Below are positions 1,381 to 62,709 of a DNA stretch of 64,000 nt, piece by piece. Position 1 is the stretch's first letter, and the number at the start of each line of letters is the position of its first letter. Position numbers and translations under genes: made by a program. The notes below the pieces were generated by a model, which searched no databases, was not told the origin of the DNA, and saw nothing but the letters and a program-made list of their open reading frames with translations. This DNA is from Betaproteobacteria bacterium (GTDB lineage Bacteria; Pseudomonadota; Gammaproteobacteria; Burkholderiales; SG8-41): positions 3,843 to 67,842 of the forward strand of contig OMIN01000058.1 of the NCBI GenBank assembly GCA_900299145.1, read 5' to 3'.

Positions 1381-1405
1381 AAAAATTCAATAAAACAAAT
1401 ACTTA
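1381..1405 (-). repeat. AT-rich dispersed repeat, copy A
   Basis: TAAGTATTTGTTTTATTGAATTTTT. Lies between the TPP-enzyme stop and the OsmC-like start. Confidence 0.85.
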
Positions 1406-1498
1406 CGATAGGCTGTTATACGCCCTCCACCCTTCACTCTTCACAACTTGCAAGATTTGAAACAGCCGCTTGTCGAAGCCAGCTTCTGTTCTGCCCCA

Positions 1499-3124
1499 TC
1501 AAAGCTTCGACACGCGCGTTTCCTTGCTGGTGATAAATTCCAGCAGCGCGGGTTTGCCTTGCTGCGTTGCTTCGATGCCACGCCGGATTGCCGCCTTGAT
1601 GTCGCCCGGCTGCGTTACGCGCTCGCCGTGGCCGTCGAAGGCTTTCGCCATGTCGGCATAGTTGCCGGAGATGTCGGTCGAGCGGTATTTCTCGGTGGAA
1701 ACCGGCATCACCTTCAACTCAATCGCCATCGAGAAATTGTTTAACAGGATGGACATGATGGGTATGCGCTCGCGCACGGCGGTTTCAAAATCCATGCCGG
1801 TAAAGCCAATCGCCGCGTCGCCCCAGATGTTCATGCACAGCTTGTCGGGCTTGGCGAGCTTTGCGCCCATTGCCATGCCGAGGCCGGAGCCGAGTTGCGT
1901 GGTCTTGCCCCAGCCCATGTAGGAGAGCGGCGTGGTGGACACCCAGAACGGCGTGATCTGATCACGCGGGCTGCCGGCATCATGGGTGATGATGCAGTTG
2001 TCGCGGTCGACCGTGTGCATCAAATCCCAGATCACGCGATACGGGTTCAGCGGCGCATCGTTGCTGGTGAGTAGCGGCATCCACTGCGCCAGAAACTGCT
2101 CGCGCAGTTTGGTGATTTCAGCGACAACGGCGGAGGCATCGCGCGGCGATTTAATCGTCTGGCCCAGTTCGCCGATCAGTGCCTGCAACACCAGTTGTGC
2201 ATCGCCCAGGAGCGCCACTTCCGCGCGCACGTCCTTGTTCAGGTGATCGGGTTCCAGCGTGGCGTGCACGAATTTCTTGCCCGCCGGAAACTTGATGCCG
2301 AAGTTGGTTTCGGTGAACGAGCAGCCGATGCCGATGATGAGATCGGCATTCTTGATGAATTCATGCACCGCCAGCGGTACCGAATTGCCGCCGGAGCCGA
2401 GCGACAGCGGATGATTCTCCGGAAAGCTCGACTTGCCACCGAGGCTGGTGGTGACCGGCGCACCGAGCAGCTCCGCGAACTGCTTCAGCTCCGCCCACGC
2501 TTCCGCCCACTGCACGCCCGTGCCCGCGTAGATGACTGGGCGCTTGGCCGCGAGAATCGCTGCAGCCGCCTTGCGCACATCTGCCGGATCGGGCGCGGTG
2601 CGGGCCTTGACCACCGGCGTGTAGTCAAAATCACCGATTTCCTCCTGCCAGATATCCGTGGGCACTTCAATCAAGCAAGGCCCGCCGCGGCCGTTGCGCA
2701 ACTTGGAAAAAGCCCGCCGCAGCGCATTGGGCGTCTCCTTCGGCATCATCAGGTGTTCGGCGGATTTGCTGACGCTGCGCATGTGTAGCGCCGATGAAAA
2801 ATTCGGGTCCACGCCCGCGATGCGCCGCGCGTAGCCCTGCGGCACCACCAGCACCGGAATGTTCTCGCTGTAGCACTGCGCAACCCCGCCATAGGCGTTC
2901 TCGGCGCCCGGCCCGTGCTGCATGCAAAACGCGCCGATTTTTTTGCCCGAAGTCACGCGCGAAATCGCATCGGCCATGTGCAAGCCGATGCGCTCCTGGC
3001 GCACGATGATCGGGCGGATGTTCTGCGCCGCCGCGAATTCGATCAGATGATTCACCGGATAACCGCAGAGTATTTCCATACCCTCGGCCTTCATGGCCTT
3101 CGCAATCGCTTCGCCGACTTTCAT
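1499..3124 (-). CDS. Thiamine-diphosphate-dependent enzyme, acetolactate synthase large-subunit family
   Basis: Full-length family resemblance, including the GDAAIGFTGMDFETAV...LLNN ThDP motif. Start moved to ATG 3124 (MKVGEAIAKAMK...), preceded by GGAGG. Confidence 0.85.
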   Translation of the reverse strand: MKVGEAIAKAMKAEGMEILCGYPVNHLIEFAAAQNIRPIIVRQERIGLHMADAISRVTSGKKIGAFCMQHGPGAENAYGGVAQCYSENIPVLVVPQGYARRIAGVDPNFSSALHMRSVSKSAEHLMMPKETPNALRRAFSKLRNGRGGPCLIEVPTDIWQEEIGDFDYTPVVKARTAPDPADVRKAAAAILAAKRPVIYAGTGVQWAEAWAELKQFAELLGAPVTTSLGGKSSFPENHPLSLGSGGNSVPLAVHEFIKNADLIIGIGCSFTETNFGIKFPAGKKFVHATLEPDHLNKDVRAEVALLGDAQLVLQALIGELGQTIKSPRDASAVVAEITKLREQFLAQWMPLLTSNDAPLNPYRVIWDLMHTVDRDNCIITHDAGSPRDQITPFWVSTTPLSYMGWGKTTQLGSGLGMAMGAKLAKPDKLCMNIWGDAAIGFTGMDFETAVRERIPIMSILLNNFSMAIELKVMPVSTEKYRSTDISGNYADMAKAFDGHGERVTQPGDIKAAIRRGIEATQQGKPALLEFITSKETRVSKL

Positions 3125-3317
3125 GGAACCTCCGATGGGTGTTTTGCAGGAACTAAAATGGTTTGCCGTCTCTGCCAATTTAGCCGCTAACCCGCATAGC
3201 GTCAAACCGTCAATCACCGTGAAGCGCGTCCGCATGCCGGGTTCGCGCCCCAGCCGAAATGCCACGCTGGTATAGAATGCCTCTCAGGGGCCACGGGTTA
3301 GCGCAGGGGGTAACGAT

Positions 3318-8068: not shown

Positions 8069-8134
8069 GCGGTAGCGTCAGCTTCAGCCCCAGACCGGTG
8101 CTGAAAGCGTAGACGCGGTAAGCATCGGTCGATT

Positions 8135-8160
8135 AAAAGCATAAATAAATCATATACTTA
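8135..8160 (-). repeat. AT-rich dispersed repeat, copy B
   Basis: TAAGTATATGATTTATTTATGCTTTT. Starts at the stop codon of 8158..8832. Confidence 0.8.
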
Positions 8161-10302: not shown

Positions 10303-11727
10303 ATGCGGACATATCGTAAGTATCTGTTTTTATTAATATTTTTCTGCGATGCCGCACAAGCCCAACTGCCGCCGCCGGTGGCGCAGGCACTCGCCCGCGC
10401 GGGCATTGCCGAAAGCGGCGTCGGCCTTTATGTGCACGAAGTCGGCGCTGCTGAGCCGGTGGCCGTGCATCGCGGCGACCAGCCGCTTAACCCTGCGTCG
10501 GTGATGAAACTCGTCACCACATACGCCGCGCTGGAACTGCTGGGTCCCGCGCATCAGTGGAGTACCGATCTTTTCACCGACGGCGAGTTGCAGCAGGACA
10601 CGCTCGCCGGCAATGTGTATCTCAAGGGCGGTGGCGATCCCAAGTTCACCATTGAAAATTTCTGGCTGCTGCTGCGTGCGCTGCGTGCCAAAGGCGTGCG
10701 CCAGATCCGCGGTGATCTGGTGCTCGACCGTTCCTTGTTCACCACCGCGCATCCCGATCCCGGCCAGTTTGATAACGAACCGCTGCAACCGTACAACACC
10801 ACGCCCGACGCGCTGCTCGCCAATTTCAAAACCTTCACGCTGACCTTCAAGCCGGAAGCCGATGGTAAAGCGGTCAACGTTACCGTTGACCCGCCGCTGC
10901 CGCAACTGCAAATTGTCAATCAACTCACGGTAAGCGACGGCCCCTGCGGCGGCCTATGGATGAACCGTATCAAAACGCAGGCGCAGGATGCCGGCGACAG
11001 CGCGCGCCTGACACTCGCCGGGCCGTATTCGCGCCAGTGCGGTGAACAGGCGAATTACTACAGCTTGTTGAGCCACCGCGCTTACGCTGCCGGACTGTTT
11101 CAATATTTGTGGCGCGAACTCGGCGGAACATTCAGCGGCCGCGTGCGCGAAGCCGACGTACCACCCGCTGCGGCGAAAATTGCCAGCCAACGTTCACTTG
11201 CGCTGTCTGAAATCGTGCGCGACATCAATAAATTCAGTAACAACGTGATGGCGCGGCAACTGCTGCTGTCTGTAGGCTTAACGACGGGCGCATCCGGCGG
11301 CGGCGCGCAATCGACACCTGAACGTGGCGCCCAAGCCGCGCGGCAATTCTTCGCCAGCAAGAACCTGCCGATGCAGCAACTGGTGATTGAAAATGGCTCC
11401 GGCCTGTCGCGCATCGAACGCGTCAGCGCGCGCGATCTCGGCCAGATGCTACTAAGCGCCTGGCGCAGTCCGGTAATGCCGGAATTCATGGCGTCCATGC
11501 CGCTGGTCGGTGTTGACGGCACCATGGTCCGGCGCCTGAAAAATTCCGACGTCGCCGGACAAGCCCACATCAAAACGGGCCTCATCAACGGCGTGCGCGC
11601 GCTGGGTGGTTATGTGCTGGATGCCAGGGGAAAGCGCGTGGTTGCCGTGCTACTGATCAATCATGCCAACGCGCACAATGCGAATCTGGTGCAGGATGCT
11701 TTTTTGCGTTGGGTGCATGCCCGATAG
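10303..11727 (+). CDS. dacB: D-alanyl-D-alanine carboxypeptidase/endopeptidase (PBP4 family)
   Basis: SxxK (SVMK), SxN (SNN) and KTG motifs in order. Start set at ATG 10303 (MRTYRKYLFLLIFFCDAAQA signal peptide). The upstream part of the track ORF overlaps the bioA 3' end. Confidence 0.85.
   Translation: MRTYRKYLFLLIFFCDAAQAQLPPPVAQALARAGIAESGVGLYVHEVGAAEPVAVHRGDQPLNPASVMKLVTTYAALELLGPAHQWSTDLFTDGELQQDTLAGNVYLKGGGDPKFTIENFWLLLRALRAKGVRQIRGDLVLDRSLFTTAHPDPGQFDNEPLQPYNTTPDALLANFKTFTLTFKPEADGKAVNVTVDPPLPQLQIVNQLTVSDGPCGGLWMNRIKTQAQDAGDSARLTLAGPYSRQCGEQANYYSLLSHRAYAAGLFQYLWRELGGTFSGRVREADVPPAAAKIASQRSLALSEIVRDINKFSNNVMARQLLLSVGLTTGASGGGAQSTPERGAQAARQFFASKNLPMQQLVIENGSGLSRIERVSARDLGQMLLSAWRSPVMPEFMASMPLVGVDGTMVRRLKNSDVAGQAHIKTGLINGVRALGGYVLDARGKRVVAVLLINHANAHNANLVQDAFLRWVHAR
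10317..10343 (+). repeat. AT-rich dispersed repeat, copy C
   Basis: TAAGTATCTGTTTTTATTAATATTTTT. Lies inside the first 14 codons of dacB. Confidence 0.9.
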
Positions 11728-11740: not shown

Positions 11741-13240
11741 TCAAAGACGCAGGCTGCGCCAGATATCATCCACACGTTTCTTGACGGCCTCATCCATCGC
11801 AATCGGCGTGCCCCACTGTCGCCCCGTCTCCGCGGGCCATTTGTTGGTGGCATCGATCCCCATCTTCGACCCCAACCCCGCCACGGGTGAGGCGAAATCC
11901 AGATAATCAATCGGCGTGTTGTCCGCGAACAGCGTGTCGCGGCGCGGATCGACGCGGGTGGTAAGCGCCCATATGACTTCTTTCCACTCGCGCACGTTGA
12001 TGTCGTCATCGACCACGATGATGAATTTGGTGTACATGAACTGGCGCAGAAAGCTCCAGATGCCGAACATCACGCGCTTGGCGTGGCCGGCGTACTGCTT
12101 TTTGATGCTGACGCAGGCGATGCGGTACGAGCAGCCTTCGGGCGGCAGGTGAAAGTCGACAATTTCCGGGAATTGTTTTTTCAGCAGCGGTACGAACACT
12201 TCGTTCAGCGCCACGCCCAGCATTGCCGGTTCGTCGGGCGGCTTGCCGGTATAGGTTGAGTGATAAATCGCGTTGCGCCGTTGCGTGATGCGCTCAATCG
12301 TAAAAGCCGGAAACCTTTCCTGCTCGTTGTAGTAGCCGGTGTGATCCCCGTAAGGTCCCTCCAACGCTGTTTCGTTCGGATAGATGAATCCTTCGAGCAC
12401 AATTTCCGCGGTCGCTGGTACCTGCAAATCGTGCGTAAGGCACTTCACCACTTCCGTTTTGTCGCCGCGCAGCAATCCCGCGAACTGGTATTCGCTTAAT
12501 GAGTCGGGCACCGGCGTCACCGCGCCGAGTATCGTTGCCGGATCAGCGCCCAGCGCTACCGCGACCGGATAGGGCTCGCGCGGATGCAGCAGCGCGTGGT
12601 CGCGAAAATCCAGCGCGCCGCCACGATGCGCAAGCCAGCGCATGATGACTTTATTTTTGGCAATGACTTGCTGACGGTAAATGCCCAGATTCTGCCGCGC
12701 CTTGTGCGGCCCGCGCGTGACGGTGAGGCCCCAAGTAATCAAGGGTGCAGCGTCGCCTGGCCAACAGGTTTGTATCGGTAGCCGCGCGAGATCGACCTGA
12801 TCCTTTTCCCACACAATTTCCTGGCATGGCGCGCTCGTCACCACGCGCGGCTGCATGGTGAGGATTTGTTTGAGCAGCGGCAGTTTGTCCCACGCATCGC
12901 GCAGGCCCCTGGGTGGCTCCGGCTCTTTCAGATACGCCAGTGTTTCACCGATCTCGCGCAGCTTCGCCAACGCATCGTCGCCGGGCGCGGCGCCCATTGC
13001 CAGCGCCACGCGTTTCACCGTACCGAACAGATTGCAGAGCACGGGCATGGCGTGCGCTGCCGTTTGCCCTTTTGGGTTTTCAAACAGAATGGCCGGGCCG
13101 CCTGCTTTCAGCACGCGGTCGCAGATTTCGGTCATTTCCAGCTTGGGATCGACCTCGACCGCCACGCGCCTTAACTCGCCAAGCCTTTCCAGTTCGGCGA
13201 GAAAGCTGCGCAGATCCCACAAGTATTTGATTTTATTCAA
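11741..13240 (-). CDS. ubiD: 4-hydroxy-3-polyprenylbenzoate decarboxylase
   Basis: Full-length UbiD resemblance (KY..DLRSFL..LE..GEL.R N-terminus). The only available start is TTG at 13240, two codons after an in-frame TAA, and it lies inside repeat copy D. Confidence 0.9.
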
Positions 13241-13247
13241 TATTTAA
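13220..13247 (+). repeat. AT-rich dispersed repeat, copy D
   Basis: CAAGTATTTGATTTTATTCAATATTTAA. Overlaps the TTG start of ubiD on the opposite strand. Confidence 0.8.
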
Positions 13248-15915: not shown

Positions 15916-18159
15916 CTATACCTTGAGAAATTCTCCGCGTCCGCCGAGCCAGCGCTGCAAATGTGCGCGCGCCGCAGCGGGGTTTTCCGCAAGCAGGGTG
16001 GTCGCCGCGTCGCGTGCGGCATCCAGAAGATCAGTGTCGGTGGCGAGATCGGCAAAGCGCAGTAGCGGCACGCCGCTTTGCCGTGCGCCGAGCAATTCGC
16101 CGGGGCCGCGCAGATGCAAATCATGCCGCGCGATTTCAAAGCCGTCGCTGTTTTCAAATATGATCTTGAGCCGCTCGCGCGCCATCGCCGACAGCGGCGC
16201 GTGATACAGCAGTATGCACGCGCTTTGCGCGGCGCCCCGTCCGACGCGGCCGCGCAACTGATGCAGCTGCGACAAGCCCATGCGCTCGGCGTTCTCGATC
16301 ACCATCAGCGAGGCATTCGGCACGTCGACGCCGACTTCAATCACCGTGGTGGCCACCAGTACCTGTACCTCGTTGCGCTGAAACGCCTGCATCACTGCGG
16401 ATTTTTCCGCGGGCTTCAACCGCCCGTGAGCGAGGCCCACCTTGAGATCGGGAAACGCGCGAGTAAGGGCTTCGTGGGTTTCTTCCGCCGCTTTGAGTTG
16501 CAGTGCTTCCAGTCCACCGCGGCCGCGCGGCTTCGCCGGTTTGGGTGAAGCCGTGGGTGCAGCCTTTGCCGCCGCCTTGGCTATTGTCTGTGGGGCATTT
16601 TCTTCGGGGTCGCCGTCACTTTCGATTTCTTCGATCAGTGGACACACCCAATACGCCTGACCGCCCGCCGCACACGCCTCATGCACGCGCACAATCACCT
16701 CTTCGCGCCGCGCGTCAGACACCAGCTTGGTGGTGACAGGCGTACGGCCCGGCGGCAATTCGTCGATCACTGACACATCGAGATCGGCGTAATAGCTCAT
16801 CGCCAGCGTGCGCGGAATCGGCGTCGCGCTCATCATGAGTTGATGAGGCTGGGCTTGGGGTTTGCCCGCGTTCGCGGATGAGGCTTGTGTACCCTTTAAC
16901 CGCAACGCCAGCCGTTGACGCACACCGAAGCGATGCTGCTCGTCGATGATCGCAAGCCCCAGCCGGTTGAACACCACGTCGTCTTCAAACAGCGCGTGGG
17001 TGCCAACCACCACCGCGACGCGCCCGGCGGATATATCTATAAGTATTTGTTTTTTAACACTTTTGTTTGTGCTGCCCGAGAGCCACGCCACGCCCACGCC
17101 CAGCGATTCCAACCACGCGGAAAACTTGCGGTAATGCTGTTCAGTAAGAATTTCCGTCGGCGCCATCAGCGCCACCTGAAAATCGTTTTCCACGCACTGC
17201 AACGCCGCGATTGCCGCGACAATGGTTTTGCCACTGCCGACGTCGCCCTGTAGCAGACGCTGCATCGGGTGTGGCCTTTCCAGATCGCCGCGAATTTGCG
17301 CGACGGCGCGCTGCTGTGCCTGCGTCAGTTCAAATGGCAAGTCCTTCAGCAGCCGGCTCACCAGCGTGCCGCGGACATGCAGCGCGGGGGCACCCATGCC
17401 ACGCCGCCGCTGGTGATGCACGCGCATCGACAGTTGTTGGGCCAGCAACTCGTCGAACTTCATACGCCGCCACGCCGGGTGCGTGCGATCCTGCAACGCC
17501 TGCTGCGACACCTCCGGCAGCGGATTGTGCAGAAAAAACACGGCGTCACGGAACTTCGGCAGCCGCTGCTCGCGGATCAACGGTTCAGGCAGCGTATCCT
17601 CAAGCGGGTCCGACGCCATGGCGCGTGCAATCAACTTGCGCAGCGTGTCCTGCCCCAACCCCGCCGTGGTGGGATATACCGGCGTCAACGCCTCGGCCAC
17701 CGGCGCGCCGGGCTGCACGATGCGATAACGTGGGTGCACCATCTCTGCGCCAAAAAACCCGTGGCGGATTTCGCCGAAGGCCCGCACGCGCACGCCGGGC
17801 GCGAACTGCTTCACCTGACTGCCGTAGAAATTCAAAAACCGCAGCGTTATCGTACTATTGGTGCCGCTGCCATCTTCAAGATGGCACACCAGTTGCCGGC
17901 GCGGCCGATACTTGATGTCGGTTTCAACCACCGTCGCTTCAATCAGCACGTCACGCCCGGCGGGCGCATCCTTGACCGGATACACATGCGTCTCGTCGTC
18001 GTAGCGCAGCGGCAGATGCAGCACCAAATCGAACTTGCTGCTGATGTTGAGCTTGGCGAGTCTGTCGAGCGTGGGTTTGCTTAAGCCCGCGAGTGAGGCG
18101 TGAGGGGTGGGGCGTGAGGGGGCGGCTCGCGGTGGATCTTTTTTCGCCTCACGCCTCAC
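15916..18159 (-). CDS. recG: ATP-dependent DNA helicase RecG
   Basis: Wedge-domain N-terminus (LHLPLRYDDET), Walker A GDVGSGKT, DEQHRFG, TPIPRT and QLHQLRGRVGRG motifs. GTG start at 18159 lies inside the heptamer hairpin. Contains repeat copy E in frame. Confidence 0.9.
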   Translation of the reverse strand: MRREAKKDPPRAAPSRPTPHASLAGLSKPTLDRLAKLNISSKFDLVLHLPLRYDDETHVYPVKDAPAGRDVLIEATVVETDIKYRPRRQLVCHLEDGSGTNSTITLRFLNFYGSQVKQFAPGVRVRAFGEIRHGFFGAEMVHPRYRIVQPGAPVAEALTPVYPTTAGLGQDTLRKLIARAMASDPLEDTLPEPLIREQRLPKFRDAVFFLHNPLPEVSQQALQDRTHPAWRRMKFDELLAQQLSMRVHHQRRRGMGAPALHVRGTLVSRLLKDLPFELTQAQQRAVAQIRGDLERPHPMQRLLQGDVGSGKTIVAAIAALQCVENDFQVALMAPTEILTEQHYRKFSAWLESLGVGVAWLSGSTNKSVKKQILIDISAGRVAVVVGTHALFEDDVVFNRLGLAIIDEQHRFGVRQRLALRLKGTQASSANAGKPQAQPHQLMMSATPIPRTLAMSYYADLDVSVIDELPPGRTPVTTKLVSDARREEVIVRVHEACAAGGQAYWVCPLIEEIESDGDPEENAPQTIAKAAAKAAPTASPKPAKPRGRGGLEALQLKAAEETHEALTRAFPDLKVGLAHGRLKPAEKSAVMQAFQRNEVQVLVATTVIEVGVDVPNASLMVIENAERMGLSQLHQLRGRVGRGAAQSACILLYHAPLSAMARERLKIIFENSDGFEIARHDLHLRGPGELLGARQSGVPLLRFADLATDTDLLDAARDAATTLLAENPAAARAHLQRWLGGRGEFLKV
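17040..17066 (+). repeat. AT-rich dispersed repeat, copy E (inside the recG CDS)
   Basis: TAAGTATTTGTTTTTTAACACTTTTGT. Its complement encodes ...TNKSVKKQILIDI... of RecG. Confidence 0.8.
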
Positions 18160-18709: not shown

Positions 18710-20047
18710 ATGCGCCGCTGGTTAGCCGTTTTACTGACGACTCTGACGGGCGCTGTGTTGGCGCAAGTGCCGCCATTGTCACTTACCGCCGTGCAATTGC
18801 GTTTTGATCCGGCATCGCTGCCGCAGGCCATGGCGGCGTACCGCCTGTGGCTCGCCAGCGGGCGCGGCGTGGCCTTGAGTGATGCCGCGATGGCGATGGT
18901 GGCGCCGGGCATATCGTTGAACGCCGCCAATCACGCGCAATACGCGCCAAGAATACAACCCATGATCGCCGCCGTCGGCAAGCGCCTTGCCGACGGCAAC
19001 GCCGACAAGGCCGAATCGGAAGCAGATGCCGCGCGGCGGTTGGGCGCGATGCTCGCTGCCACTGAATGGCAGGCGCTGATCGAAGGCGCGCGACCGGCAA
19101 ATGCCGCGGCGCAATCTTACGTGGACGCCACGCTCGCCATCGCCATGCTGACATCGGCGGGCATCGGCGAGCAGACTTCGCCCGATGCCTCGCGGCTGTG
19201 GGCGCGCGTGCGTGGTATGGCAAGCGCCTACGATCCGGCGGCGGGCAAGGGGCGTTTGCAGCCCGCGGCGTCCACTGCGGAGGCCGCTTTCGACAAGCTG
19301 AAGTCGGCTGTTGAACAAACCGTCCGCGCGCAGCGGGCGCGTTCCGCCGCTGCCGCCTTGGCGCTGGCGCGCGAGTTGTATCCGGATTACGCCAGCGGGA
19401 AGGCGCGCCAGATAGGCAGCGCGGCAAAGATCGAGGCACTGATCGAAGCTTTGCGCATGCCGGAACTCGCGCGATTTTACGGCGCGTTATGGGCCGACAT
19501 CCATGCGTTGGAAGTGCAACTGCGCGTGCATGAACTGGCCCGCGCGGCAGGCCGCCCGGAAAACTGGGACAGTGACGGTACTCGCCGGCCGCGCATGACG
19601 GAATTCATCCTGCCGCGCGTGCAAAAACTCGGTGCTGATGCGCCCACGTCAGATGCGCTGGCGGGCATGCTCACCGAACTGATTTCCGACGTGGACGCCG
19701 ACTGGATGCGTGTTGAAGCTGCCAGCGCGCGCGGTCAAAAGCTGATGCCCACGGTGGAGCGACTCATCATAGCCAGCTTCTGGCGGCGCGGCATTGAGCC
19801 CGCGCGTGCGTGGGCGGGCAACGCCTACCGCGCAGGCGACATTGCGCAGGACGCCATCAACGCGCTGCGTGGCGACCCGAACGGGCGCGATGCCGTGATG
19901 AAGCGGCTGGAACCGCTCGAGCAAAAATCGCAGCCGGTGTACGAGCGCTGGCTCAACTATCAGGTCTCACGCACGCGCGCGGCGGTGCAGCAGGTCATGC
20001 AGCGGGACACCAAGGAAATACGCGCGTTACTCGATAGTCTAAAATAG
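18710..20047 (+). CDS. Hypothetical secreted Ala-rich helical protein
   Basis: Signal peptide MRRWLAVLLTTLTGAVLAQ. No family recognised. Confidence 0.55.
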   Translation: MRRWLAVLLTTLTGAVLAQVPPLSLTAVQLRFDPASLPQAMAAYRLWLASGRGVALSDAAMAMVAPGISLNAANHAQYAPRIQPMIAAVGKRLADGNADKAESEADAARRLGAMLAATEWQALIEGARPANAAAQSYVDATLAIAMLTSAGIGEQTSPDASRLWARVRGMASAYDPAAGKGRLQPAASTAEAAFDKLKSAVEQTVRAQRARSAAAALALARELYPDYASGKARQIGSAAKIEALIEALRMPELARFYGALWADIHALEVQLRVHELARAAGRPENWDSDGTRRPRMTEFILPRVQKLGADAPTSDALAGMLTELISDVDADWMRVEAASARGQKLMPTVERLIIASFWRRGIEPARAWAGNAYRAGDIAQDAINALRGDPNGRDAVMKRLEPLEQKSQPVYERWLNYQVSRTRAAVQQVMQRDTKEIRALLDSLK

Positions 20048-20068
20048 TTCAATAAAAACATACACTTA
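20041..20068 (-). repeat. AT-rich dispersed repeat, copy F
   Basis: TAAGTGTATGTTTTTATTGAACTATTTT. Lies between convergent genes and overlaps the TAG stop of 18710..20047. Confidence 0.85.
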
Positions 20069-23101: not shown

Positions 23102-23111
23102 GCCGTACTCC

Positions 23112-23138
23112 AAAAAATTCAATTAAAACAGATGCTTA
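23112..23138 (-). repeat. AT-rich dispersed repeat, copy G
   Basis: TAAGCATCTGTTTTAATTGAATTTTTT. Ends at the RBS of the ACAD gene 21965..23101. Confidence 0.85.
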
Positions 23139-23255
23139 TAACAATGCCTCTCCGCGAGACAAAACCCGCTTCAGGGGACAGGCGCACTGTAACGAATATA
23201 ATCGCGCGGCTCAATACCAGAGTAACCCGCAATCAAACTGACATCCGAGGACACC

Positions 23256-33012: not shown

Positions 33013-33747
33013 ATGTCATTTTCCGGACGCATCGGGCTGCTCGCGCCCTCGTCAAACACCACCGTCGAACCGGAGTTTTACCGCGCTCTGCCGCAAGGCG
33101 TTTCACTTCACACCGCGCGCCTGCCGATCACGCAGGTCACGCCGGATTCCATCGGCAAGATGGCCGATTCACTGGATGTTGAATCAAAACTGCTCGCCAC
33201 CGCTGATGTGGACGTGATTATATTGGGCGCCACCGCGCCGAGTTTTTTGAAGGGGCTGGGCTACGACCGCGAAGTCAGCGAGCGCATCACGCGCGTCACC
33301 GGCAAGCCGGCGACCACGACTTCCACAGCACTGCTGGAAGCGTTCAAGGCGCTCGGCATTTCACGCATCGCGCTCGGCTCCGCGTACAGCCCGGAGGTCA
33401 ATGGCATCTGCGCGAAATTCATCGAAGCCAACGGTATCAAAGTGGTGGCCATGGACGGCCTTAACGTTGTCGACAATCTGCAAATAGGCCGGCTGGATGT
33501 GCAGACTGCTTATGATCTTGGCAGGAAAATTGATTGCCCCGAAGCCGAGGCCATTGTGCTTGCCTGCACCAACTGGAAAAGCATGGCCATAATCGAGCGG
33601 CTGGAGCGGGACTTGGGCAAACCCGTGTTGTCGACGTCGCAAGTGAGCATCTGGGGTGCGCTGAAAAAAATCGGCTTCAGCGGCAGTATCGCTGGCTATG
33701 GAAAATTGTTGCGCATGTTCCCGCAAGCGACACAAAAAGCCGGTTAA
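33013..33747 (+). CDS. Asp/Glu/hydantoin racemase superfamily protein, maleate isomerase / arylmalonate decarboxylase-like with a single catalytic Cys
   Basis: IGLLAPSSNTTVEPEF N-terminus. First catalytic position reads GATAPS (no Cys); second reads ACTNW. Start at ATG 33013 after GGAG. Confidence 0.65.
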   Translation: MSFSGRIGLLAPSSNTTVEPEFYRALPQGVSLHTARLPITQVTPDSIGKMADSLDVESKLLATADVDVIILGATAPSFLKGLGYDREVSERITRVTGKPATTTSTALLEAFKALGISRIALGSAYSPEVNGICAKFIEANGIKVVAMDGLNVVDNLQIGRLDVQTAYDLGRKIDCPEAEAIVLACTNWKSMAIIERLERDLGKPVLSTSQVSIWGALKKIGFSGSIAGYGKLLRMFPQATQKAG

Positions 33748-33773
33748 AAATATTGTTTGAAAACAGATACTTA
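33746..33773 (-). repeat. AT-rich dispersed repeat, copy H
   Basis: TAAGTATCTGTTTTCAAACAATATTTTT. Spans the stop of 33013..33747 up to the Bug start at 33778. Confidence 0.8.
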
Positions 33774-35737: not shown

Positions 35738-35764
35738 TAACTATTTGTTTTTAAGGGAGAATTT
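35738..35764 (+). repeat. AT-rich dispersed repeat, copy I
   Basis: TAACTATTTGTTTTTAAGGGAGAATTT. Contains the RBS of the aldolase gene. Confidence 0.7.
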
Positions 35765-36562
35765 ATGAGCCGATTGTTCGAGAAGCTGGCCGCGGGCCAG
35801 ATGGGGCTGGGCGTATGGATCAAGGGTGGTCCGAGCTGGGTGCCAACCATCGCGCGCGCCGGTTTCGATTTCATACGCCCCGACATGATGTTCTCCGCCA
35901 TCGATTGGCGCGAGCTCGATCACATCAACCGCACCGCGCAGGCCGTGGGCATTACCACGTGGGTGCGCGTGCCGGCGAACCCGTGGCTCGCCGGCAACGA
36001 TTCGCTGCAGGTCACGGTGGATGTGCAACGCGCGTTCAGTCTCGGCATTCCCTTTGTTGGCGCTTCGATTGCCTCGGCCGCGCAAGCGCGTGCGTGTCTG
36101 GAAGTGTCGCAGGACTGGCATCGCTCCGGCGCGGGCGAGTATCCAAACTCGAATGAAACCTTTGCCGCCATGCACAAGAAGGAAGCCGACGCGGCGGTGT
36201 TCGTGCCGCACATCGAAGCCGGCAACTCGGTAAAGGAAATCGACGAAATCATCGCGCTCGACGGGCTGCGCGTCATCATGCTGGCGATGACGGATTTATC
36301 CAAAGCCATCACCCTGCCGTTCGAATACGATCACCCGGAATTGTGGCGCGCGGTCGACCGTATCGTCTCCAAATGCCACGCGCGCAACATCGTGGTGGCC
36401 GCCAACATGGGCTATGCCTTCACCACGCCGCCGCAAATGCGCGATCGCGTCAAACGCATGCACGAACACGGCATCCGCATTTGCCTGATGCAGGGTGCAG
36501 ACGTGATGCTGGAAAATCTGGCGAAAGCGGTGCTGGCGGACGTGCGCGGGGCGCTGGAGTAG
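35765..36562 (+). CDS. HpcH/HpaI-family aldolase / citrate-lyase beta-like
   Basis: Size and pattern fit (G.W....P......A.AGFDF...D..FS). The RBS GGGAGA lies inside repeat copy I. Confidence 0.65.
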   Translation: MSRLFEKLAAGQMGLGVWIKGGPSWVPTIARAGFDFIRPDMMFSAIDWRELDHINRTAQAVGITTWVRVPANPWLAGNDSLQVTVDVQRAFSLGIPFVGASIASAAQARACLEVSQDWHRSGAGEYPNSNETFAAMHKKEADAAVFVPHIEAGNSVKEIDEIIALDGLRVIMLAMTDLSKAITLPFEYDHPELWRAVDRIVSKCHARNIVVAANMGYAFTTPPQMRDRVKRMHEHGIRICLMQGADVMLENLAKAVLADVRGALE

Positions 36563-37438: not shown

Positions 37439-38139
37439 GAGCGGAACAATCTGCTGTATTGCGTTTCGTGTTGGCTGGAGAGCATTGCGAAATGCGGCGC
37501 GAAATTACCGAGTTCGCCGTCGGCAAGTGTGACGGCCGTCTGCGCCACTGCGTCGAGCCGCGCGCCCAGCGCGAGCAATATTTTTTGCCCGTTGGTTTGG
37601 CCCAGCGGCACGGCCTTGAGTGCAGCCATCACCTGATTCTCGAGCCAGCTCCACAGATAGGCAGTGAGCGCAGTCGTCGGCTCGATTTGCCATTGGGTGG
37701 CAGCACAGGCGTACGCTGCGGGATATGCCGGTTCATCAAGCGATTGCAATTGCTTGAACGCAGTTGCGCAGCCATCACCAGCATCATCGAGTTCATGTAA
37801 CAGCCGCGCCAGCGAATAACCCATTTGCACGGTTTCCGCGCGCAACTCGGCGGTCTCTCGGCTGGCGAGAAACAGCGCGTTCCAGTGTTCGACAGCGGCC
37901 AAATCCTTTTGCGCCCACGCCTGCATCAGCCGCAGCAGCAACGGTGCTTCCATGGCGGCGACGGAGAGTTCCAGCACGTCACCTATCCATGTTTGCGCGC
38001 TGGCGGCGTCGCTCACAATGCCGGCTTCAACGGCAGCCTCCAGACCCTGCGAATAGCTGTAGGCACCCACCGGCAGCGTGGGGCTGGCCAGTTGCAGCAG
38101 GCGGGCGAGACGAGAATTTCTTGTGGCTGGAACAATCAT
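37435..38139 (-). CDS. ureF: Urease accessory protein UreF
   Basis: [21 protein letters not shown] signature. Position between ureE and ureG. ATGA-type overlap with ureG. Confidence 0.9.
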
Positions 38140-38148
38140 AACTATTTG

Positions 38149-38175
38149 TTTTTATTAAATTTTTTCATACTCGTG
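38149..38175 (+). repeat. AT-rich dispersed repeat, copy J
   Basis: TAACTATTTGTTTTTATTAAATTTTTT. Fills the ureE-ureF junction on the antisense strand. Confidence 0.9.
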
Positions 38176-40761: not shown

Positions 40762-40789
40762 TAAGTATTTGTTTTTATTTAATATTTTT
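40762..40789 (+). repeat. AT-rich dispersed repeat, copy K
   Basis: TAAGTATTTGTTTTTATTTAATATTTTT. Fills the ureA-ureB junction on the antisense strand. Confidence 0.9.
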
Positions 40790-41090
40790 AAATTATCGGG
40801 TTGTGCACCGTGACCAATTTGGTGCCATCCGGAAACGTCGCTTCAATCTGGATTTCAGGAATCATTTCCGCCACCCCCTCCATCACGTCATCGCGGGCGA
40901 GCAGGGTCGCACCCCAGCCCATGAGTTCAGAAACGGATTTTCCGTCACGCGCGCCTTCCATGATCGCGGCGCTGATAAATGCGACGGCTTCGGGATAATT
41001 CAGTTTCAGGCCGCGTGCCTTACGCCGCTCCGCTAGCAGACCAGCGGTGAAAATCAGCAACTTGTCTTTTTCTCTGGGCGTCAATTCCAT
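40788..41090 (-). CDS. ureA: Urease subunit gamma
   Basis: [35 protein letters not shown] signature. Confidence 0.95.
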
Positions 41091-49664: not shown

Positions 49665-49690
49665 TAAGTATCTGTTTTTATTGATTTTTT
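49665..49690 (+). repeat. AT-rich dispersed repeat, copy L
   Basis: TAAGTATCTGTTTTTATTGATTTTTT. Intergenic, between the porin and CMD-family genes. Confidence 0.9.
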
Positions 49691-49861
49691 GCGGGATGCT
49701 GGGCATGGGTTCCTGAAAGTGCCGGCGTCGCCGCCACACGATCCTGCGGCAGTGCCGTTGATTGCAGTGCTACGTGCCGATGCGCGACGGTGTGTTGATC
49801 CCGCCGCAGTCGTGTTAACTTCCTCCCTCCGCAACTTTTCGAAATTTTTCAAGGACACACT

Positions 49862-51483: not shown

Positions 51484-51514
51484 TAAGTGTCTGATTTATT
51501 GGATATTTATTTTA
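51484..51514 (+). repeat. AT-rich dispersed repeat, copy M
   Basis: TAAGTGTCTGATTTATTGGATATTTATTTT. Shares the 5' flank TGGGTTTTG with copy N. Confidence 0.75.
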
Positions 51515-55475: not shown

Positions 55476-55501
55476 TAACTATTTGTTTTAATTGGTTATT
55501 T
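55476..55501 (+). repeat. AT-rich dispersed repeat, copy N
   Basis: TAACTATTTGTTTTAATTGGTTATTT. Lies 20 nt after the HD-GYP stop. Confidence 0.75.
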
Positions 55502-58500
55502 CCCGGCGTCCAGTGTCAGCGCCGTGGCGATTTCCGCGGGTTTGTCTGCTTTCACCTCGGCGGCGGCCTTGCTGCCAATACGCGCTTCTTCAAGGCCAGC
55601 CGTGGTTTTGAGATGACTCAGGATCGCTGAACTGCGTTGCGCCGCCAGCGCCGTCAACGCATCTTTGGCGAGCGGCTGCAATTCAATTACCTGATTGAAC
55701 AGCGCTTCCTAGAATTGGCGGTCGGGGCTGCCGCGCCCCACGAGCGCCAGCGCCGGGTTGACCCGGCTCACCGGCTTGCCGGTGGCTTTTTCGTGTGTGG
55801 CCCTGAATTTGTCTATGCCGTCTTTGCCCACACGTTCTTCCATCATGGCCTCAATCGCACGCTGCGTTTTGGCGTTGTCGAAATTTACCAGCACAGGATC
55901 TTCTTCGCCCGTGACCTTGATGCCTTGCCGCTCCGCCAGTGCGCGCCGCGCCGCCGATGCGCGCAACGCCGCGCCGTCGTGACGCGTATCGTAGCGGCCT
56001 TCCACCAGCAGCTTGAGTTGTGGCCGCTGCTTTAGCACACCAGCGACGCGCGCGAGTTTTTCCCGCTCCGGCGGCGTAAGCAGTGCGCGGCCTGCTTCAA
56101 AAGCGATGGCGTCCATTTTCTCCGCGCCACCTCCGAACAGCGACGCCAGCGCCCGAAACGGTGCGGTGACGATATTGGTCAGCACGGTGCGAATCGCCTG
56201 CCACACCAGATGTCCATAGGCGAATTCCGGGTTGTCGACATTGCCGCGCACCGGCACCGACAGATCAATCTTGCCGTTGGAATCCGTAAGCAGCGCAATC
56301 GCAAGGTCCAGCGGCAGATTGATGGCCGTCGGGCTATCCACGCGCTCGCCCAGCGTGAACTGTTCTAGCAACACCTTGTTCTCGCCCTGCAACTGGCTGT
56401 TGTTTAACTTGTATTGCAAGTCCAGCGATAATTTGCCGGAGGCGATACGGCGCCCGGCGAACGTCGCGCTGTAGGGCGTGAGCGGTGACATCGCCACGTT
56501 GCGGAAATTCACCGCGATATCGGTGAACGCTTTCGGCTCGAACGGATTTAACGTGCCACCAATTTGCGCCTGTCCGAACTCATCCACGCGGCCTTCGAGC
56601 TTCACGCCCGCGCGCGTGCCTGGCTGACTGGAAAGCCCGGTAATCGTGCCATTGAATTCCCGTATCAGCGCTGCAAACGGCAGCACCAGGCTTTGATCGG
56701 CAAAATCCAGTTCACCGTTGCTGACATTAACGCGTTCGATACTGAAATTGAACGGCGCTTCGCCAGCCGTGGTATTGGAGGCTGCCGGCGTTGGCGTCGA
56801 AGCTGTTTGTTCAGCCGCGTCGGCAGACTTGCGAAGTATGCCCGCGAAATTGGTGCTTTTGTCCCTTGCAATGGCGATCTTGCCGCTGGGTGCGGTGAGC
56901 CGCACGTCCTCAATACGCGCCGCACTATCCAGCTGTATGCCTTCGGCAAGCAGCCCTTTTAGCGCTACCAACCGCTCGTCGCCACCTTCCGGGTCCAGCC
57001 GAAAATCATCCAGCCCGGCGCTGCCCGTATATAACGCACGCCCGGGGCTTTGCCTTGCCCACTCCATTCGATCTGTCCGGCTGCGTGCGCCGCGCCCGAC
57101 ACCAGTTTTAGCGTGGTGTACTTTGCCACCACGCCCGCCAGCGGCAACAAGGCCACGTTGCGCGCCTCAACCTTGAACGACGCGCGCTGTTCGGCGGTGG
57201 AGGCCGTACCCTGCGCCCGCAACGACGCGCCCGGTGCGGGCGCTGGCGCGTTGGTGGCCGTAGCGCCGGCGGCGGCAACGCGCACATCCTCCAACGCGGC
57301 ATTGCCGTTGTAACGAATGCCGGCGGCCTTGCCGTCGCCGTTCCAGTCCAGTTGCCCGCCAACCTGCGCCGTGCCAGCTGTTAGTTTGAAGCCGGATTGC
57401 TTTTCGATGAGCGCTGCCAAAGGTAGCAGGGCGATGCTGTTGGCGTCGAGCTTGATGCTGGCGCGTTGTTGCGACGGTGTCACGTTGCCGGTCGCGCGCA
57501 GCGTGCCGCCCTGTTTGATTTGCAGAGCCGCTTCAAACGGCATCGCGTTCTTGCCACTGCTGTCGAAATTTTTCGCAGCGAAGCGCAGGCTTTGCACATC
57601 CAGCGCGAGCGGCGTATTCGCACCCAGATCACGAAACGATGCCGTGCCATCCACGACTTCGATGGCGAGAATTTCCGCGCTGATCGAATCCGGCTCGGGC
57701 GGCCTGGGTCTTCGCGCAAACGCCGTGGCCAAATTGATTGTGCCGCTCGCGTCGCGCACCATAGCCGTGGCCGGTTTGCTGATCTTGACTGCGTTGGCAA
57801 AAAATTTCTTTTGCGCCAGATCGAAATTGCCACCGGCAAGATTCGCCGACGCAAGCGTCACGAGACTCTCTTTTGCGCCCGCTGAAGAAATCCGAATGTC
57901 GGCTACGTCGACCGTAATATTTTCGACGTTCGCCGTCACTTGCGCACCAACCGACGCCTTGACGCTGGTGCTGGCGGCGGCGCGCGCGATGTCCACGGTC
58001 AGCGGTTGCACGAAACCCTGATCGATGACGCGCAGGCGCACGTCTTCGGCCTTGACACTATCGATGGCAAATTGCCACGGAGCCACGGAGGCAGCCTGCG
58101 CGGCAGCCGGTTCGGTGGCGGGTTTCTCGGCAGTCGGCTTCGCACCGCCAGCCGCCACGAGTTGCGCCCAGTTGTTGTCGCCTTTGGCGTCGATCAACGT
58201 ATTGGCGGCGATCTTGTTCAAGGCAAGTTGCGCAAACTGAATTTTGCGCTGTGCAAGATCAAACGTGCCGCCGCTGAGCGCCAGTTCACCCGCAGTCAAC
58301 GCCGTTTCCGCCACACCTCTTTGTCTAAGCGAAACATCCGCAAGATTGAACGTTATCGCGCTGGCTGACGCCGCAAGTTTGCTGTCCGCGTAGCGGGCAT
58401 CGTACTGCAGCGACAGCCCCGCTTGCCCGCCCGGTTCTTCGATGCGCAACTTATCCTGCACGAACTGCCACAGCGTGGTGAGCTTCACGGACTTCACTTC

Positions 58501-60147: not shown

Positions 60148-60198
60148 ACCGAATACTCCCGTAAAAATGCGAAAAAATAGCGCCGCCGTAGCAGCGCT

Positions 60199-60224
60199 AT
60201 TTTATTAATTAAATCAGATACTTA
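60199..60224 (-). repeat. AT-rich dispersed repeat, copy O
   Basis: TAAGTATCTGATTTAATTAATAAAAT. Lies between the methyltransferase stop and the HBD start. Confidence 0.8.
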
Positions 60225-61058: not shown

Positions 61059-61173
61059 GGAAAACCTCTCGGAGAATGAAGAAAGTCTAAACGAAAGCCA
61101 AGGGAATGCGGGCAGAGGCGACTGAGAGAACAGCTATTATGCCTTAAGGCGAAGGATTGACTCACGCCGCACG

Positions 61174-62526
61174 TTAAGTGCGCACTAGCGACATCAGGTC
61201 ATTTACACTCTGCAACGTTTGCAGATTTTCCACAAGATCAACAACCCGATCCGCCCTTGCGGTATCAATTACCCGGCGTGCGCACGAATGAAATTTCTTC
61301 ATCCGCTGCTCACGTGTCAGCGGATTGCCCACCCAGCCGGAGAGTTTGTCGACGCGTTGTGTCAGCACGCGGCCGTCGGTAAGGGTGACGGTCATGTCGA
61401 TATGCATGCGGTCGAAGTCGTTGGGGATTGCATCGTCCATGATGAGCGTCACTTTCGGCAGCAGGGCTTCGACGTCGGGCGCGAAGCGGCGCGCGTTGTC
61501 GAAGGAGTCGACGGTGATTTCGCCGTCGAGCAGCGCCACCGCCGTGGTGTATTGAATACTGAATTTTCCGTCGAGGCCGGTCTTGGGCTGCGGGCGGTTG
61601 ACGTATTCAAAGCGCGGAGAGCGCACGTCAACTTTCGCGATTTGTTCAGGCTTGATCTGATGCTGTTCGCGCAGCGCCAGCGCGGCGTCGATCGGCCGAT
61701 GGGTGAAATAATTGGACGGATGTTTTTTGAACCCTACCCCAGGATCGACCATGCGAAACGGTGCGCCGAAGTTGTCGACGAGTAAATGCGGCTCGGCGCG
61801 GCCGAAGAGAAACGTGTCGAAAAAGCCCTTTGGTCCGAACACATCGGCCGCACCCGTAAAGCCCATTTGTGCCAGCACCGCACATTCCACGCCATTGCGA
61901 GCGGCGTGGCCGGAATGCGACGACTTGGTCATGCTGCCAGTGTTGATCGAAATGCTGCCCGCGCGCGAACCGGCAATGCCGAAGGCCATCAGCATTTGTT
62001 CCCGCGCAAGATCGAGCATCTTGCACGCGGCAGTGACCGCGCCGAATTGCCCGGTGGTGCCTGGCTTGTGAAAGCCGGACCCGGTTTCCAATCCCGTAGA
62101 AGCCATGCGCATGCGGCCCTGCACTTCAAACGCCGCCACCAGCGACTCGATGATTTTTTTGCCGCCGAGGCCGTGATGTTCCGCAATCGCCAGAATTGCC
62201 GGCAGCGTGGGCGAAGTCGGGTGATTCAGCGGATACCAGGTGTTGTCGAAATCGAGCGCATGCGCCATGGTGCCATTCGCGTAAGCGGCGCTGATCATCG
62301 AGGTTTTGAAGCCGCCCGCGATCACTGTCGCCTGCGGATTGCCGCCGCAGTCTTTTACATATTGCGTGACGATGCGGCCCAGCCCCAGCGGCTCGGTGGC
62401 GCCGGCGAGCATCACGGCGATGCCGTCGAGCACGCAGGCTTTGGCCATGTCAATGGCGGCGGGCGGCAGCGTGTCGTATTGAACCGCGCGGATTTTATCG
62501 ATGAGGGTTTCGGTGATGGTTGCCAT
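61174..62526 (-). CDS. MmgE/PrpD-family protein (2-methylcitrate dehydratase-like)
   Basis: Full-length family resemblance (KACVLDGIAVMLAG..., HALDFDN, GSMTKSSHSGHAARNGV). Confidence 0.85.
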   Translation of the reverse strand: MATITETLIDKIRAVQYDTLPPAAIDMAKACVLDGIAVMLAGATEPLGLGRIVTQYVKDCGGNPQATVIAGGFKTSMISAAYANGTMAHALDFDNTWYPLNHPTSPTLPAILAIAEHHGLGGKKIIESLVAAFEVQGRMRMASTGLETGSGFHKPGTTGQFGAVTAACKMLDLAREQMLMAFGIAGSRAGSISINTGSMTKSSHSGHAARNGVECAVLAQMGFTGAADVFGPKGFFDTFLFGRAEPHLLVDNFGAPFRMVDPGVGFKKHPSNYFTHRPIDAALALREQHQIKPEQIAKVDVRSPRFEYVNRPQPKTGLDGKFSIQYTTAVALLDGEITVDSFDNARRFAPDVEALLPKVTLIMDDAIPNDFDRMHIDMTVTLTDGRVLTQRVDKLSGWVGNPLTREQRMKKFHSCARRVIDTARADRVVDLVENLQTLQSVNDLMSLVRT

Positions 62527-62683
62527 GGTTGTCTGTTTGAAAGTGCCGATCAGCGAGTGTCAGCTAGCAAAAGTCAGTCCGCCCTCGCCCCCGAATGTTT
62601 TGCCATTGCCGCGTAGTCGGGCTGTGCAAAGGGAGTTGCGCAACTAACATCCCTATCTTGGCGATCGCTCAAGGGGATACTCG

Positions 62684-62709
62684 TAAGTATTTGATTTTGT
62701 GGAATTTTT
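62684..62709 (+). repeat. AT-rich dispersed repeat, copy P
   Basis: TAAGTATTTGATTTTGTGGAATTTTT. Intergenic, upstream of the PrpD-family gene. Confidence 0.8.

Follow-up and report, generated by a model that had tools for sequence, protein, structure and literature searches.

Introduction

In Escherichia coli, the RIP/RIB elements are sites for integration host factor (IHF) embedded in BIME-1 clusters of REP palindromes, at about 100 per genome. In the Correia elements of Neisseria and at the ends of insertion sequences and transposons (IS/Tn), the IHF site travels as part of a mobile element, which has inverted repeats and target duplications. The cognate motif has ~3000 occurrences per E. 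coli genome, or about one per 1.5 kb, and BIMEs have been discussed as possible organisers of topological domains (PMC6907758). Canonical IHF sites are made up of WATCAR, TTR, two base steps (usually AA) 9 bp apart and an A-tract; the prolines of IHF intercalate at the two steps, the A-tract consists of 4-6 A in the site's opposite half, and the site as a whole covers 34-35 bp (PMC1874591; bioRxiv 10.1101/382655). Dispersed sequences of another kind are the uptake signals, that is the uptake signal sequence (USS) of the Pasteurellaceae and the DNA uptake sequence (DUS) of the Neisseriaceae with its dialects (PMC1626085 / PMC2346458). Here, we analyze an AT-rich motif family found in a 64-kb stretch of DNA from a Betaproteobacteria bacterium of the order Burkholderiales (contig OMIN01000058.1, positions 3,843 to 67,842, forward strand), referred to below as the window.

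The family resembles RIP/RIB in being a dispersed, extragenic and repeated set of apparent IHF-type sites, lying between genes or within operons with no known regulatory target. Unlike RIP/RIB, it has no flanking REP palindromes or other repeats, is about ten times denser, and also occurs in coding sequence and at orthologous positions across species. Like the Correia elements, it would be a case of repeated IHF-type sites in a betaproteobacterial lineage, but here, in contrast to those elements and to IS/Tn ends, the element consists of the site alone and is non-mobile. Canonical IHF sites are few and lie at regulatory or recombination loci, whereas this family would amount to hundreds to thousands of near-identical sites per genome, located in spacers, at gene ends and in one coding sequence, with no link to promoters or recombination sites. 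Being bare, non-mobile, dense, conserved across species and partly protein-coding, it differs from each of the H'-type IHF sites of phage lambda, RIP/RIB and USS/DUS.

Results and Discussion

A dispersed motif family in the window

The motif, TAAGTATYTG(T/A)TTTTATTGAWWTTTTT, is present in 16 copies in 64 kb, or about one per 4 kb, with ten on the plus strand and six on the minus strand; a 10:6 split in one window is uninformative on replication-strand bias. With up to two mismatches allowed, its core, TAAGTATYTGWTTT, matched 17 times in the window compared to a mean of 0.24 in dinucleotide shuffles, none of 100 of which reached 17. A profile hidden Markov model (HMM) trained on 183 copies recovered exactly the 16 window copies and no others. 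The excess over expectation is thus strong in the window, and the 16 clear copies of the original prediction are all found among the core matches and all recovered by the profile. Their strands and coordinates also agreed with ours, except that the copy placed at 38149 starts at 38139. Three 'possible degenerate copies' suggested at the same time (8838, 47826 and 53737) did not stand up, since none was recovered by the profile at E<=10; only the one at 47826 resembles, by eye, a decayed half-copy. The seventeenth core match, at 46851, lies within a coding sequence, lacks the T-rich tail and is most likely a chance occurrence.

Because the window is GC-rich (56-64% GC), the copies, which we number in order of position, stand out as AT islands and account for 16 of its ~17 strongest. 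Their spacing is more even than chance, the smallest gap being 1.9 kb (P=0.002 versus random choice among the 33 spacers). The longest copy-free stretch (window 23139-33745, 10.6 kb) has a slightly lower GC content (0.58) and contains the gene for a 1012-aa CHAT-domain/TPR protein (26814-29852); the stretch may have been acquired and lack the signal of the host.

To define the limits of the element, we built a frequency matrix from 155 copies in the window and related loci. The element is ~36 bp long with sharp edges, information rising at position -8, falling at +28 and being at background by -9 and +29. It is asymmetric and non-palindromic, and consists of an AT-rich shoulder (-8 to -1), a near-invariant core, TAAGTATYTG(T/A)TTTTATT, and G-A-W-W followed by a T-run (22-26). 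Two states are seen at only two core positions, namely T 0.97 and C 0.03 at position 0 and T 0.79 and C 0.19 at position 7. The information content of the 16 window copies is ~36 bits, where ~13 bits would be enough to specify one site per 4 kb. The flanks of the copies are unrelated to one another and random right up to the element edges; since information drops to background on both sides (by -9 and +29), the element is not a piece of a larger repeat and this possibility was ruled out.

The copies had been said to lack hairpins and flanking direct or inverted repeats, and this was confirmed on both counts. No hairpin was shared among six folded copies, flank-to-flank complementarity was no greater than in mismatched controls (p=0.54), and there was neither an excess of flanking direct repeats around the window copies nor a target-site duplication.

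Correspondence to the IHF site of lambda attP H'

The layout of the element recalls that of an IHF site. The H' site of lambda was confirmed in the lambda record (NC_001416) at 27750-27776 (AAAAAAGCATTGCTTATCAATTTGTTG), and the reverse complement of the family, AAAAATATCAATAAAAACAAATACTTA, aligns to it ungapped over 27 nt. On the reverse strand, the 27-nt body of the family reads AAAAA-TAT-CAA-TAAA-AACAA-ATAC-TTA. The A-tract occupies reverse-strand positions 1-5/6 (AAAAAA in H', AAAAA in the family), the motif T-run at 22-26 being A1-A5 of the reverse strand in the same register as H'. The first kink step is at 10-11 (TT in H', AA in the family; motif T16 0.86, T17 0.83), followed by W-A-x-C-A-R at 15-20 (TATCAA and AAACAA, respectively), the N4 at 21-24 (TTTG and ATAC) and TTR at 25-27 (TTG and TTA). 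The two AA steps of the family, A10-A11 and A19-A20 (the latter corresponding to motif Y7 and T8, T8 0.99), are exactly 9 bp apart, and the ~36 bp, non-palindromic element is close to the ~34-35 bp of an asymmetric IHF site. All four IHF elements are found in one ungapped register, and the H' geometry invoked in the original prediction is borne out by the lambda record.

Agreement with WATCAR-N4-TTR across the 155 copies varies with the position. TTR is present in ~100% (as TAA/CAA on the motif strand) and CAR in ~98%, and the W and A positions also conform; the T position of WATCAR is occupied by A in ~89% and by T in ~10%. In the window, 4 of the 16 copies are perfect matches, 10 differ only at this T and 2 have T at the R position. 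The two-state core positions, 0 and 7, are the R positions of TTR and WATCAR, so that the family is degenerate where H'-type sites are. It departs from H' in that most copies have AAACAA rather than WATCAA, and in that the N4, like the stretch between the kinks, hardly varies within a lineage. By our own tally, the four IHF elements would account for ~29 bits if each were nearly invariant, which is of the same order as the ~36 bits found in the copies. With one copy per 4 kb, the density of the family and that of the cognate motif in E. coli differ by less than a factor of ten.

On balance, we favor the reading that the copies form a clade-wide set of near-optimal IHF-type bending sites, the binder probably being the host IHF or a close member of the IHF/HU family. 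Both IHF as the binder and an architectural role, in nucleoid compaction or domain organisation for example, are what we infer from the sequences. At each site, the A-tract would clamp one flank and TTR the other, two prolines would intercalate at the AA steps 9 bp apart and kink the DNA, and the heterodimeric IHF-type protein would fold the site into a ~160 degree bend. The chromosome would then carry a fixed bend node every 2-10 kb, placed wherever 36 AT-rich bases can be tolerated, which means spacers between genes and between cistrons (in either orientation), the ends of genes and a lysine-rich RecG linker. If this is true, a complete, hard-wired set of specific bending sites is visible here, which in E. 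coli is blurred. Whether specific IHF binding has an architectural role, a matter of long debate, could then be tested by comparative genomics, chromatin immunoprecipitation (ChIP) and Hi-C, on ~36-bp AT islands that are evenly spaced and shared across species. It would also mean that protein ends, and an internal linker of RecG, can be recoded under strong selection for a signal in the shape of the DNA.

Conservation of the copies and their origin in place

One copy (copy 5, 17040..17067, plus strand) lies inside the coding sequence (CDS) of recG, a minus-strand gene (15916-18159); it is located 1.1 kb into the gene, on the non-coding strand. E. coli RecG aligns through this region without a gap, the copy encoding ...KSVKKQILIDI... 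with no change in length, as anticipated by the suggestion that a copy is tolerated within a conserved CDS. The copy falls in the lysine-rich linker of RecG, with residues altered compared to motif-free orthologues. It is kept at the DNA level in 26 orthologues with ~65-83% local amino-acid identity, whose segments are 51-65% AT (AAAAAAA..GATAAAAAACAA..ACTTA...ATAT) and encode KK(S/T)xKKQxLxxI via the rare codons AAA, ATA and CTT. The corresponding segment of 54 motif-free orthologues, at 17-46% AT, specifies RKxEKRxALAxVA through ordinary GC-rich codons. With local protein identity at 65-83%, synonymous sites should be saturated, so it is the sequence of the DNA that must be maintained.

A related locus, L117, in which RecG is 80% identical, is syntenic with the window from 8 to 24 kb. 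Orthologous copies were found there for five of the six window copies in this interval; the sixth lies in a 2.2-kb segment missing from L117. Where the spacers can no longer be aligned, the motif stands as a conserved island. More generally, the positions of orthologous copies are held, in the face of GC pressure, across species with 80-90% protein identity and beyond. L117 also has an extra, lineage-specific copy inside its class-III aminotransferase gene (L117 14192-14224, encoding QNQILTKN), where LEIFVQNQILTKNRQ replaces the LDIFETENVIGANRQ of the window at equal length. The window has only a partial AT patch at this site (9985-10009). The L117 aminotransferase copy is in the same reading frame as the recG copy (CAA ATA CTT = Q I L). 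Because the copies in CDSs match motif-free orthologues in length, we conclude that copies arise in place by substitution and not by insertion.

These data bear directly on the idea of a small mobile repeat, or one propagated by copy-and-paste (MITE-, REP- or RPE-like), with a transposase or gene conversion behind its spread. Copies within a genome are indeed highly similar, even at positions that no binder obviously needs, and one of them sits in the 2.2-kb indel segment; Rickettsia palindromic elements (RPE) are a precedent for in-frame repeats within genes. The absence of terminal inverted repeats, a hairpin or a target-site duplication, the random flanks up to the element edges, the equal-length substitutions within CDSs and the orthologous positions all speak against it, however, and we consider such an origin highly improbable.

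Distribution across genomes

The original prediction would have fallen had the family been confined to this window, but the motif is carried by at least ~30 species of metagenome-assembled genomes (MAGs). A scan for the exact 18-mer, with one genome per species, gave at least 115 loci. About 85 of the matches listed were from ~30 GC-rich MAG species labelled Burkholderiales or Betaproteobacteria, and these ~85 loci, among the matches listed, all showed the full consensus ...TAAGTATTTGTTTTTATTGAWWTTTTT. Single full-length consensus copies were seen in cultured Limnobacter, Corticibacter and Comamonas, with no neighboring gene in common among the three; such singles are what a broadly conserved binder would predict.

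To sample loci independently of the motif except at recG itself, we used a RecG-anchored metagenome scan, which yielded 80 orthologous loci. The 26 loci with the recG motif (322 kb, GC 0.62) contained 21 profile hits, 63 AT islands (1.96 per 10 kb) and 57 matches to YAA-N4-TTGWTW, compared to 0, 6 (0.11 per 10 kb) and 5, respectively, in the 54 loci without it (552 kb, GC 0.65). The strict IHF consensus had no match in these 552 kb of sister loci. In close relatives, the density is one copy per 3-4 kb. A RecG tree built with the motif columns masked grouped the motif-bearing genes into one large monophyletic clade and one small second clade, from which we conclude that the family is old, mostly vertically inherited and clade-specific. 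Lineage dialects (GTAT, GTTG, GTGG, ATAG, CTAA, GTGA and others) differ within the N4, which is near-invariant (GTAT) only in the lineage of the window and varies freely, even within a single locus, in distant members of the clade.

A phage origin was considered and rejected. The 18-mer had 110 exact matches in viral contigs, almost only in AT-rich phages as expected of chance hits; only 5 were in GC-rich contigs and none had a convincing full-length tail. A separate conserved sequence, cccccTTTAAGCTAAGTATTTGTTTTTATTGATGTTAATCAATATCCATAAT, recurs in viral contigs of ~43-47% GC (e.g. L198, L200, L218, L221, L243, L252 and L273); the 18-mer is part of it, but it is a phage element with no relation to the family, perhaps a promoter or a regulatory region. 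None of ten 14-mers of the motif occurs in any paper of the searched literature, and a keyword search of the literature library gave no description of such a motif family, nor of uptake sequences in these bacteria.

An IHF-type site or that of another binder

The comparative data both strengthen and complicate the IHF-type reading. The original prediction had proposed a nucleoid-protein site with IHF as a candidate, but had objected that independent IHF sites would not need a conserved N4. The ungapped register with H' strengthens that proposal, and the objection holds only within the lineage of the window. There, nonetheless, both the N4 (GTAT) and the bases between the kinks are near-invariant, though IHF should not read them, and this is the first of several points that weigh against IHF-type sites. 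The consensus compared is that of E. coli and lambda, which may not be the specificity of this clade, and A replaces the consensus T in ~89% of copies (AAACAA, not WATCAA). The ~36 bits carried by the copies far exceed the 13 bits needed, an excess also expected from molecular drive. IHF is regarded as universal in Proteobacteria, yet 552 kb of GC-rich sister loci have no profile hit, no strict IHF consensus and only 6 AT islands. Since sister lineages that presumably have IHF do without the family, IHF alone does not require it and a factor particular to the clade is needed. Nothing in an architectural role explains why a site should be kept in recG, with larger spacers nearby. Lastly, ihfA and ihfB were not found in the window or in ~190 loci.

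Several of these points would be accounted for if the motif were the site of another clade-particular DNA-binding protein, outside the IHF/HU family. This could be a lineage-specific nucleoid-associated or domain-boundary protein, or the site might be read by two proteins, its likeness to an IHF site reflecting merely a shared need for AT-rich, bendable DNA. Clade restriction of the family, when IHF is regarded as universal, fits such a protein, as does the systematic departure from WATCAA at the T. The excess information, with the near-invariant GTAT (in the window lineage) and TTTTTATT between the kinks, suggests more base contacts or a second reader, and the AT-rich shoulder at -8 to -1 lies outside the IHF consensus. 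No candidate protein was identified, however, and IHF fully explains the asymmetric 36-bp layout (YAA-N4-YTG, AA steps 9 bp apart and a distal A-tract). The freedom of the N4 in distant lineages and the occurrence of single consensus copies in distant cultured genera also argue against it. We judge a binder of this sort to be unlikely.

A possible DNA uptake signal

Alternatively, the clade could be naturally competent and the motif its uptake signal, a counterpart of the USS of the Pasteurellaceae and the DUS of the Neisseriaceae. The uptake machinery would prefer DNA carrying the motif, biased uptake and homologous recombination would raise the number of copies where these are tolerated, and the phased T-tracts would help the DNA to kink as uptake starts. 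Though this strikes us as rather improbable, many features of the family are those of USS/DUS. It is clade-restricted and mostly vertically inherited, with lineage dialects, and has a kilobase-scale density on both strands (16 copies in 64 kb versus 0.24 expected; 10 plus, 6 minus) with spacing more even than chance (P=0.002). Copies arise by substitution in place and are tolerated in some genes, changing residues in recG, the L117 aminotransferase, the N-terminus of UbiD and the C-terminus of ureE. The information content is about three times what site recognition needs, and the motif is rare in GC-rich viral contigs. A core followed by two T-tracts recalls the extended USS of Haemophilus, which likewise has phased AT-tracts after its core. 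The one copy deep in a CDS is in recG, the sole genome-maintenance gene identified in the window; a bias of DUS and USS towards such genes is one that Davidsen et al. reportedly described in 2004. While these population-level predictions of an uptake signal are borne out, they do not discriminate it from IHF-type sites.

Other features fit less well. Unlike USS/DUS, the family has a different sequence, is AT-rich in a GC-rich genome and also fits the site of a known DNA-bending protein, and it would have to be a coincidence that all four IHF elements are matched exactly in register and that the degenerate positions are precisely those of IHF sites. The N4 is unconstrained in distant lineages, varying within a single locus in distant clade members, which is looser than known USS/DUS cores. 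Almost all copies are intergenic, only ~1 in 16 being in a CDS, where known uptake sequences are common, although the AT-richness of the motif in a GC-rich genome could be the reason. No gene for competence (comEA, comEC, pilQ, minor pilins or dprA) was found within the 64-kb window, and the searched literature reports no uptake signal for Burkholderiales outside the Neisseriaceae.

The two ideas might be combined, in that the motif could be a third independent family of uptake sequences, belonging to an unrecognized transformable clade of mostly uncultured Burkholderiales MAGs, that has borrowed the U-turn geometry of an IHF site. The DNA would be pre-bent, or bent by a protein, for entry through the secretin, and molecular drive would account for the recG copy, for the dialects and the origin in place, and for the information beyond what is needed. 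We give this version, too, only a small chance of being right. If the motif is an uptake signal, sequence-specific uptake extends to a new bacterial group known mostly from environmental metagenomes, with a bearing on gene flow in communities. Whether it marks IHF-type sites or an uptake signal, the motif provides a simple and highly specific genomic marker for the clade, and calls for caution among annotators because it overlays start and stop codons.

Gene context and the possibility of an expression signal

Genes were mapped by open reading frames (ORFs) and Pfam. The window encodes ordinary metabolism, with many TctC/Bug receptors, acyl-CoA dehydrogenases, ubiA/ubiC/ubiD, recG and a urease-urt cluster. 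Eleven copies are in co-directional spacers (6 sense, 5 antisense), 3 at convergent gene ends, 1 in a divergent spacer and 1 inside recG, in agreement with the absence of a fixed orientation relative to genes noted at the outset.

These counts are hard to reconcile with an RNA-level element or with a signal for transcription or translation, be it a promoter, UP element, terminator, leader or ribosome-loading sequence, and we consider such readings very unlikely. It is true that the element is AT/U-rich, that copies 3, 7, 8, 9 and 10, and one in locus L010, abut start codons, and that the genes next to copies 3, 8 and 10 lack a Shine-Dalgarno sequence; copies near start codons are nevertheless expected, because the spacers are short. 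Sense and antisense copies are about equal in number (6:5), three copies are at convergent gene ends, and the recG copy is conserved 1.1 kb inside the gene on the non-coding strand. None of the five copies between 30 and 50 kb coincides with a promoter-like or terminator-like consensus match. The copies have no common fold, and no family in Rfam 15 matches the motif at the gathering score, the sole match in the window, 5_ureB_sRNA, being unrelated to it. The element is one of the DNA itself, independent of orientation, and not a transcription or translation signal. Expression or RNA signals and a mobile repeat are thus largely excluded, and the earlier dismissal of terminators, MITEs and a single promoter type is upheld by the orientation counts, the consensus scans and the lack of inverted repeats and duplications.

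Individual copies in the window

Copy 1 (1378..1405, minus strand; TAAGTATTTGTTTT-ATTGAATTTTTT; profile score 16.0 bits) shares the sense of the two genes that border its spacer, a TPP-enzyme gene with its stop at 1499 and a small minus-strand gene starting at ~1283. Copy 2 (8133..8160, minus; TAAGTATATGATTTATTTATGCTTTTAA) is between convergent genes, its TAA being the stop codon of gene 8158-8832, and L117 has a copy at the same place. Copy 3 (10317..10344, plus; TAAGTATCTGTTTTTATTAATATTTTTC) has the best profile score (25.0 bits) and is flanked by the stop codon of a class-III aminotransferase gene (10289) and the ATG of an S13 peptidase (PBP4-like) gene (10350); it, too, has an orthologous copy in L117.

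Copy 4 (13220..13247, plus; CAAGTATTTGATTTTATTCAATATTTAA) is a perfect match to WATCAA-N4-TTR and runs antisense to both the TctC gene and the UbiD gene. Read on the reverse strand, it specifies what is likely to be the N-terminus of UbiD, (M)NKIKYLW, and the N-terminus of this protein is encoded by the motif in four species, those of the window, L117, L118 and L119. The UbiD start codon is apparently a TTG within the motif (window 13238-13243; also in L118) and an ATG in L117 and L119.

Copy 6 (20041..20068, minus) is between convergent genes, and its tail holds the TAG stop codon of gene 18710-20047. It is located in the 2.2-kb segment absent from L117 (18554-20799), which contains two convergent ORFs with no Pfam match, 18710-20047 (plus) and 20116-20781 (minus). 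This segment is an indel, yet carries its own copy of the motif between its ORFs. Copy 7 (23111..23138, minus) is in the divergent spacer of an acyl-CoA dehydrogenase gene and a DUF1993 gene, directly upstream of the GGAG-N7-ATG of the dehydrogenase. It is orthologous in L117, where the motif is a conserved island and the rest of the spacer has diverged.

Copy 8 (33746..33773, minus) is antisense to an Amdase-family gene and a TctC gene and occupies the 30-nt spacer from the stop codon of the former (33747) to the ATG of the latter (33778). Copy 9 (35738..35765, plus; TAACTATTTGTTTTTAAGGGAGAATTTA) has an intact core, but in place of the tail it has the Shine-Dalgarno sequence and the ATG of an HpcH-family gene. 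Copy 10 (38139..38166, plus) is antisense within the urease operon and covers the end of ureE (its last four codons and the stop), the 15-nt spacer after it and the A of the ureF ATG. Besides the ureE stop (38139), stop codons are overlaid by the copies at 8133, 20041 and 33746. The genes beside copies 3, 8 and 10 (PBP4-like, TctC and ureF) have no recognizable Shine-Dalgarno sequence, the AT-rich motif directly preceding their start codons.

Copy 11 (40762..40789, plus; TAAGTATTTGTTTTTATTTAATATTTTT) is also antisense to the urease operon, in the 45-nt ureA-ureB spacer. It is bracketed by an 11-bp inverted repeat, GGCTCGGTAAT ... ATTATCGGGTT (window 40747-40803; fold z = -3.9). The other copies have no such bracket, and the repeat is either a local feature or due to chance. 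The match to 5_ureB_sRNA (window 39920-40203, plus, 123 bits) is antisense to the gene for the urease alpha subunit, ureC (38655-40352), and is probably due less to a real sRNA in this organism than to the conserved coding sequence of urease.

Copy 12 (49665..49692, plus) is in the spacer between a porin O/P gene and a CMD-family gene, in the same sense as both. Copy 13 (51484..51511, plus; TAAGTGTCTGATTTATTGGATATTTATT), a perfect match to WATCAG-N4-TTR, has a TctC stop codon (51453) on one side and a hybrid histidine kinase gene on the other. Copy 14 (55476..55503, plus) follows the stop codon of an HD-domain gene (55456), and the adjoining DUF748 gene converges on it. This DUF748/AsmA-like gene (window 55709-59166, minus) is split into two overlapping ORFs, 56965-59166 and 55709-57067, which cover positions 19-591 and 575-983 of Pfam DUF748; this looks like a frameshift, due to either a pseudogene or a sequencing or assembly error.

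Copy 15 (60197..60224, minus; TAAGTATCTGATTTAATTAATAAAATAG) is a perfect WATCAG-N4-TTR with a weak tail, in a co-directional spacer upstream of a 3-hydroxyacyl-CoA dehydrogenase gene and in the same sense. Copy 16 (62684..62711, plus; TAAGTATTTGATTTTGTGGAATTTTTAC), a perfect WATCAA-N4-TTR, is in the spacer of two minus-strand genes and antisense to both. A copy in L010 next to the counterpart of gene 62766-63479 was considered as an orthologue and rejected, as the neighboring gene differs in L010.

Genes for TctC/Bug-family periplasmic receptors, several of which border copies of the motif, number at least 8 in the 64 kb, including 34-675, 13254-14225, 30481-31470, 33778-34749, ~34800-35729 and 50476-51453. 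Such an abundance is typical of Alcaligenaceae- and Comamonadaceae-like Burkholderiales.

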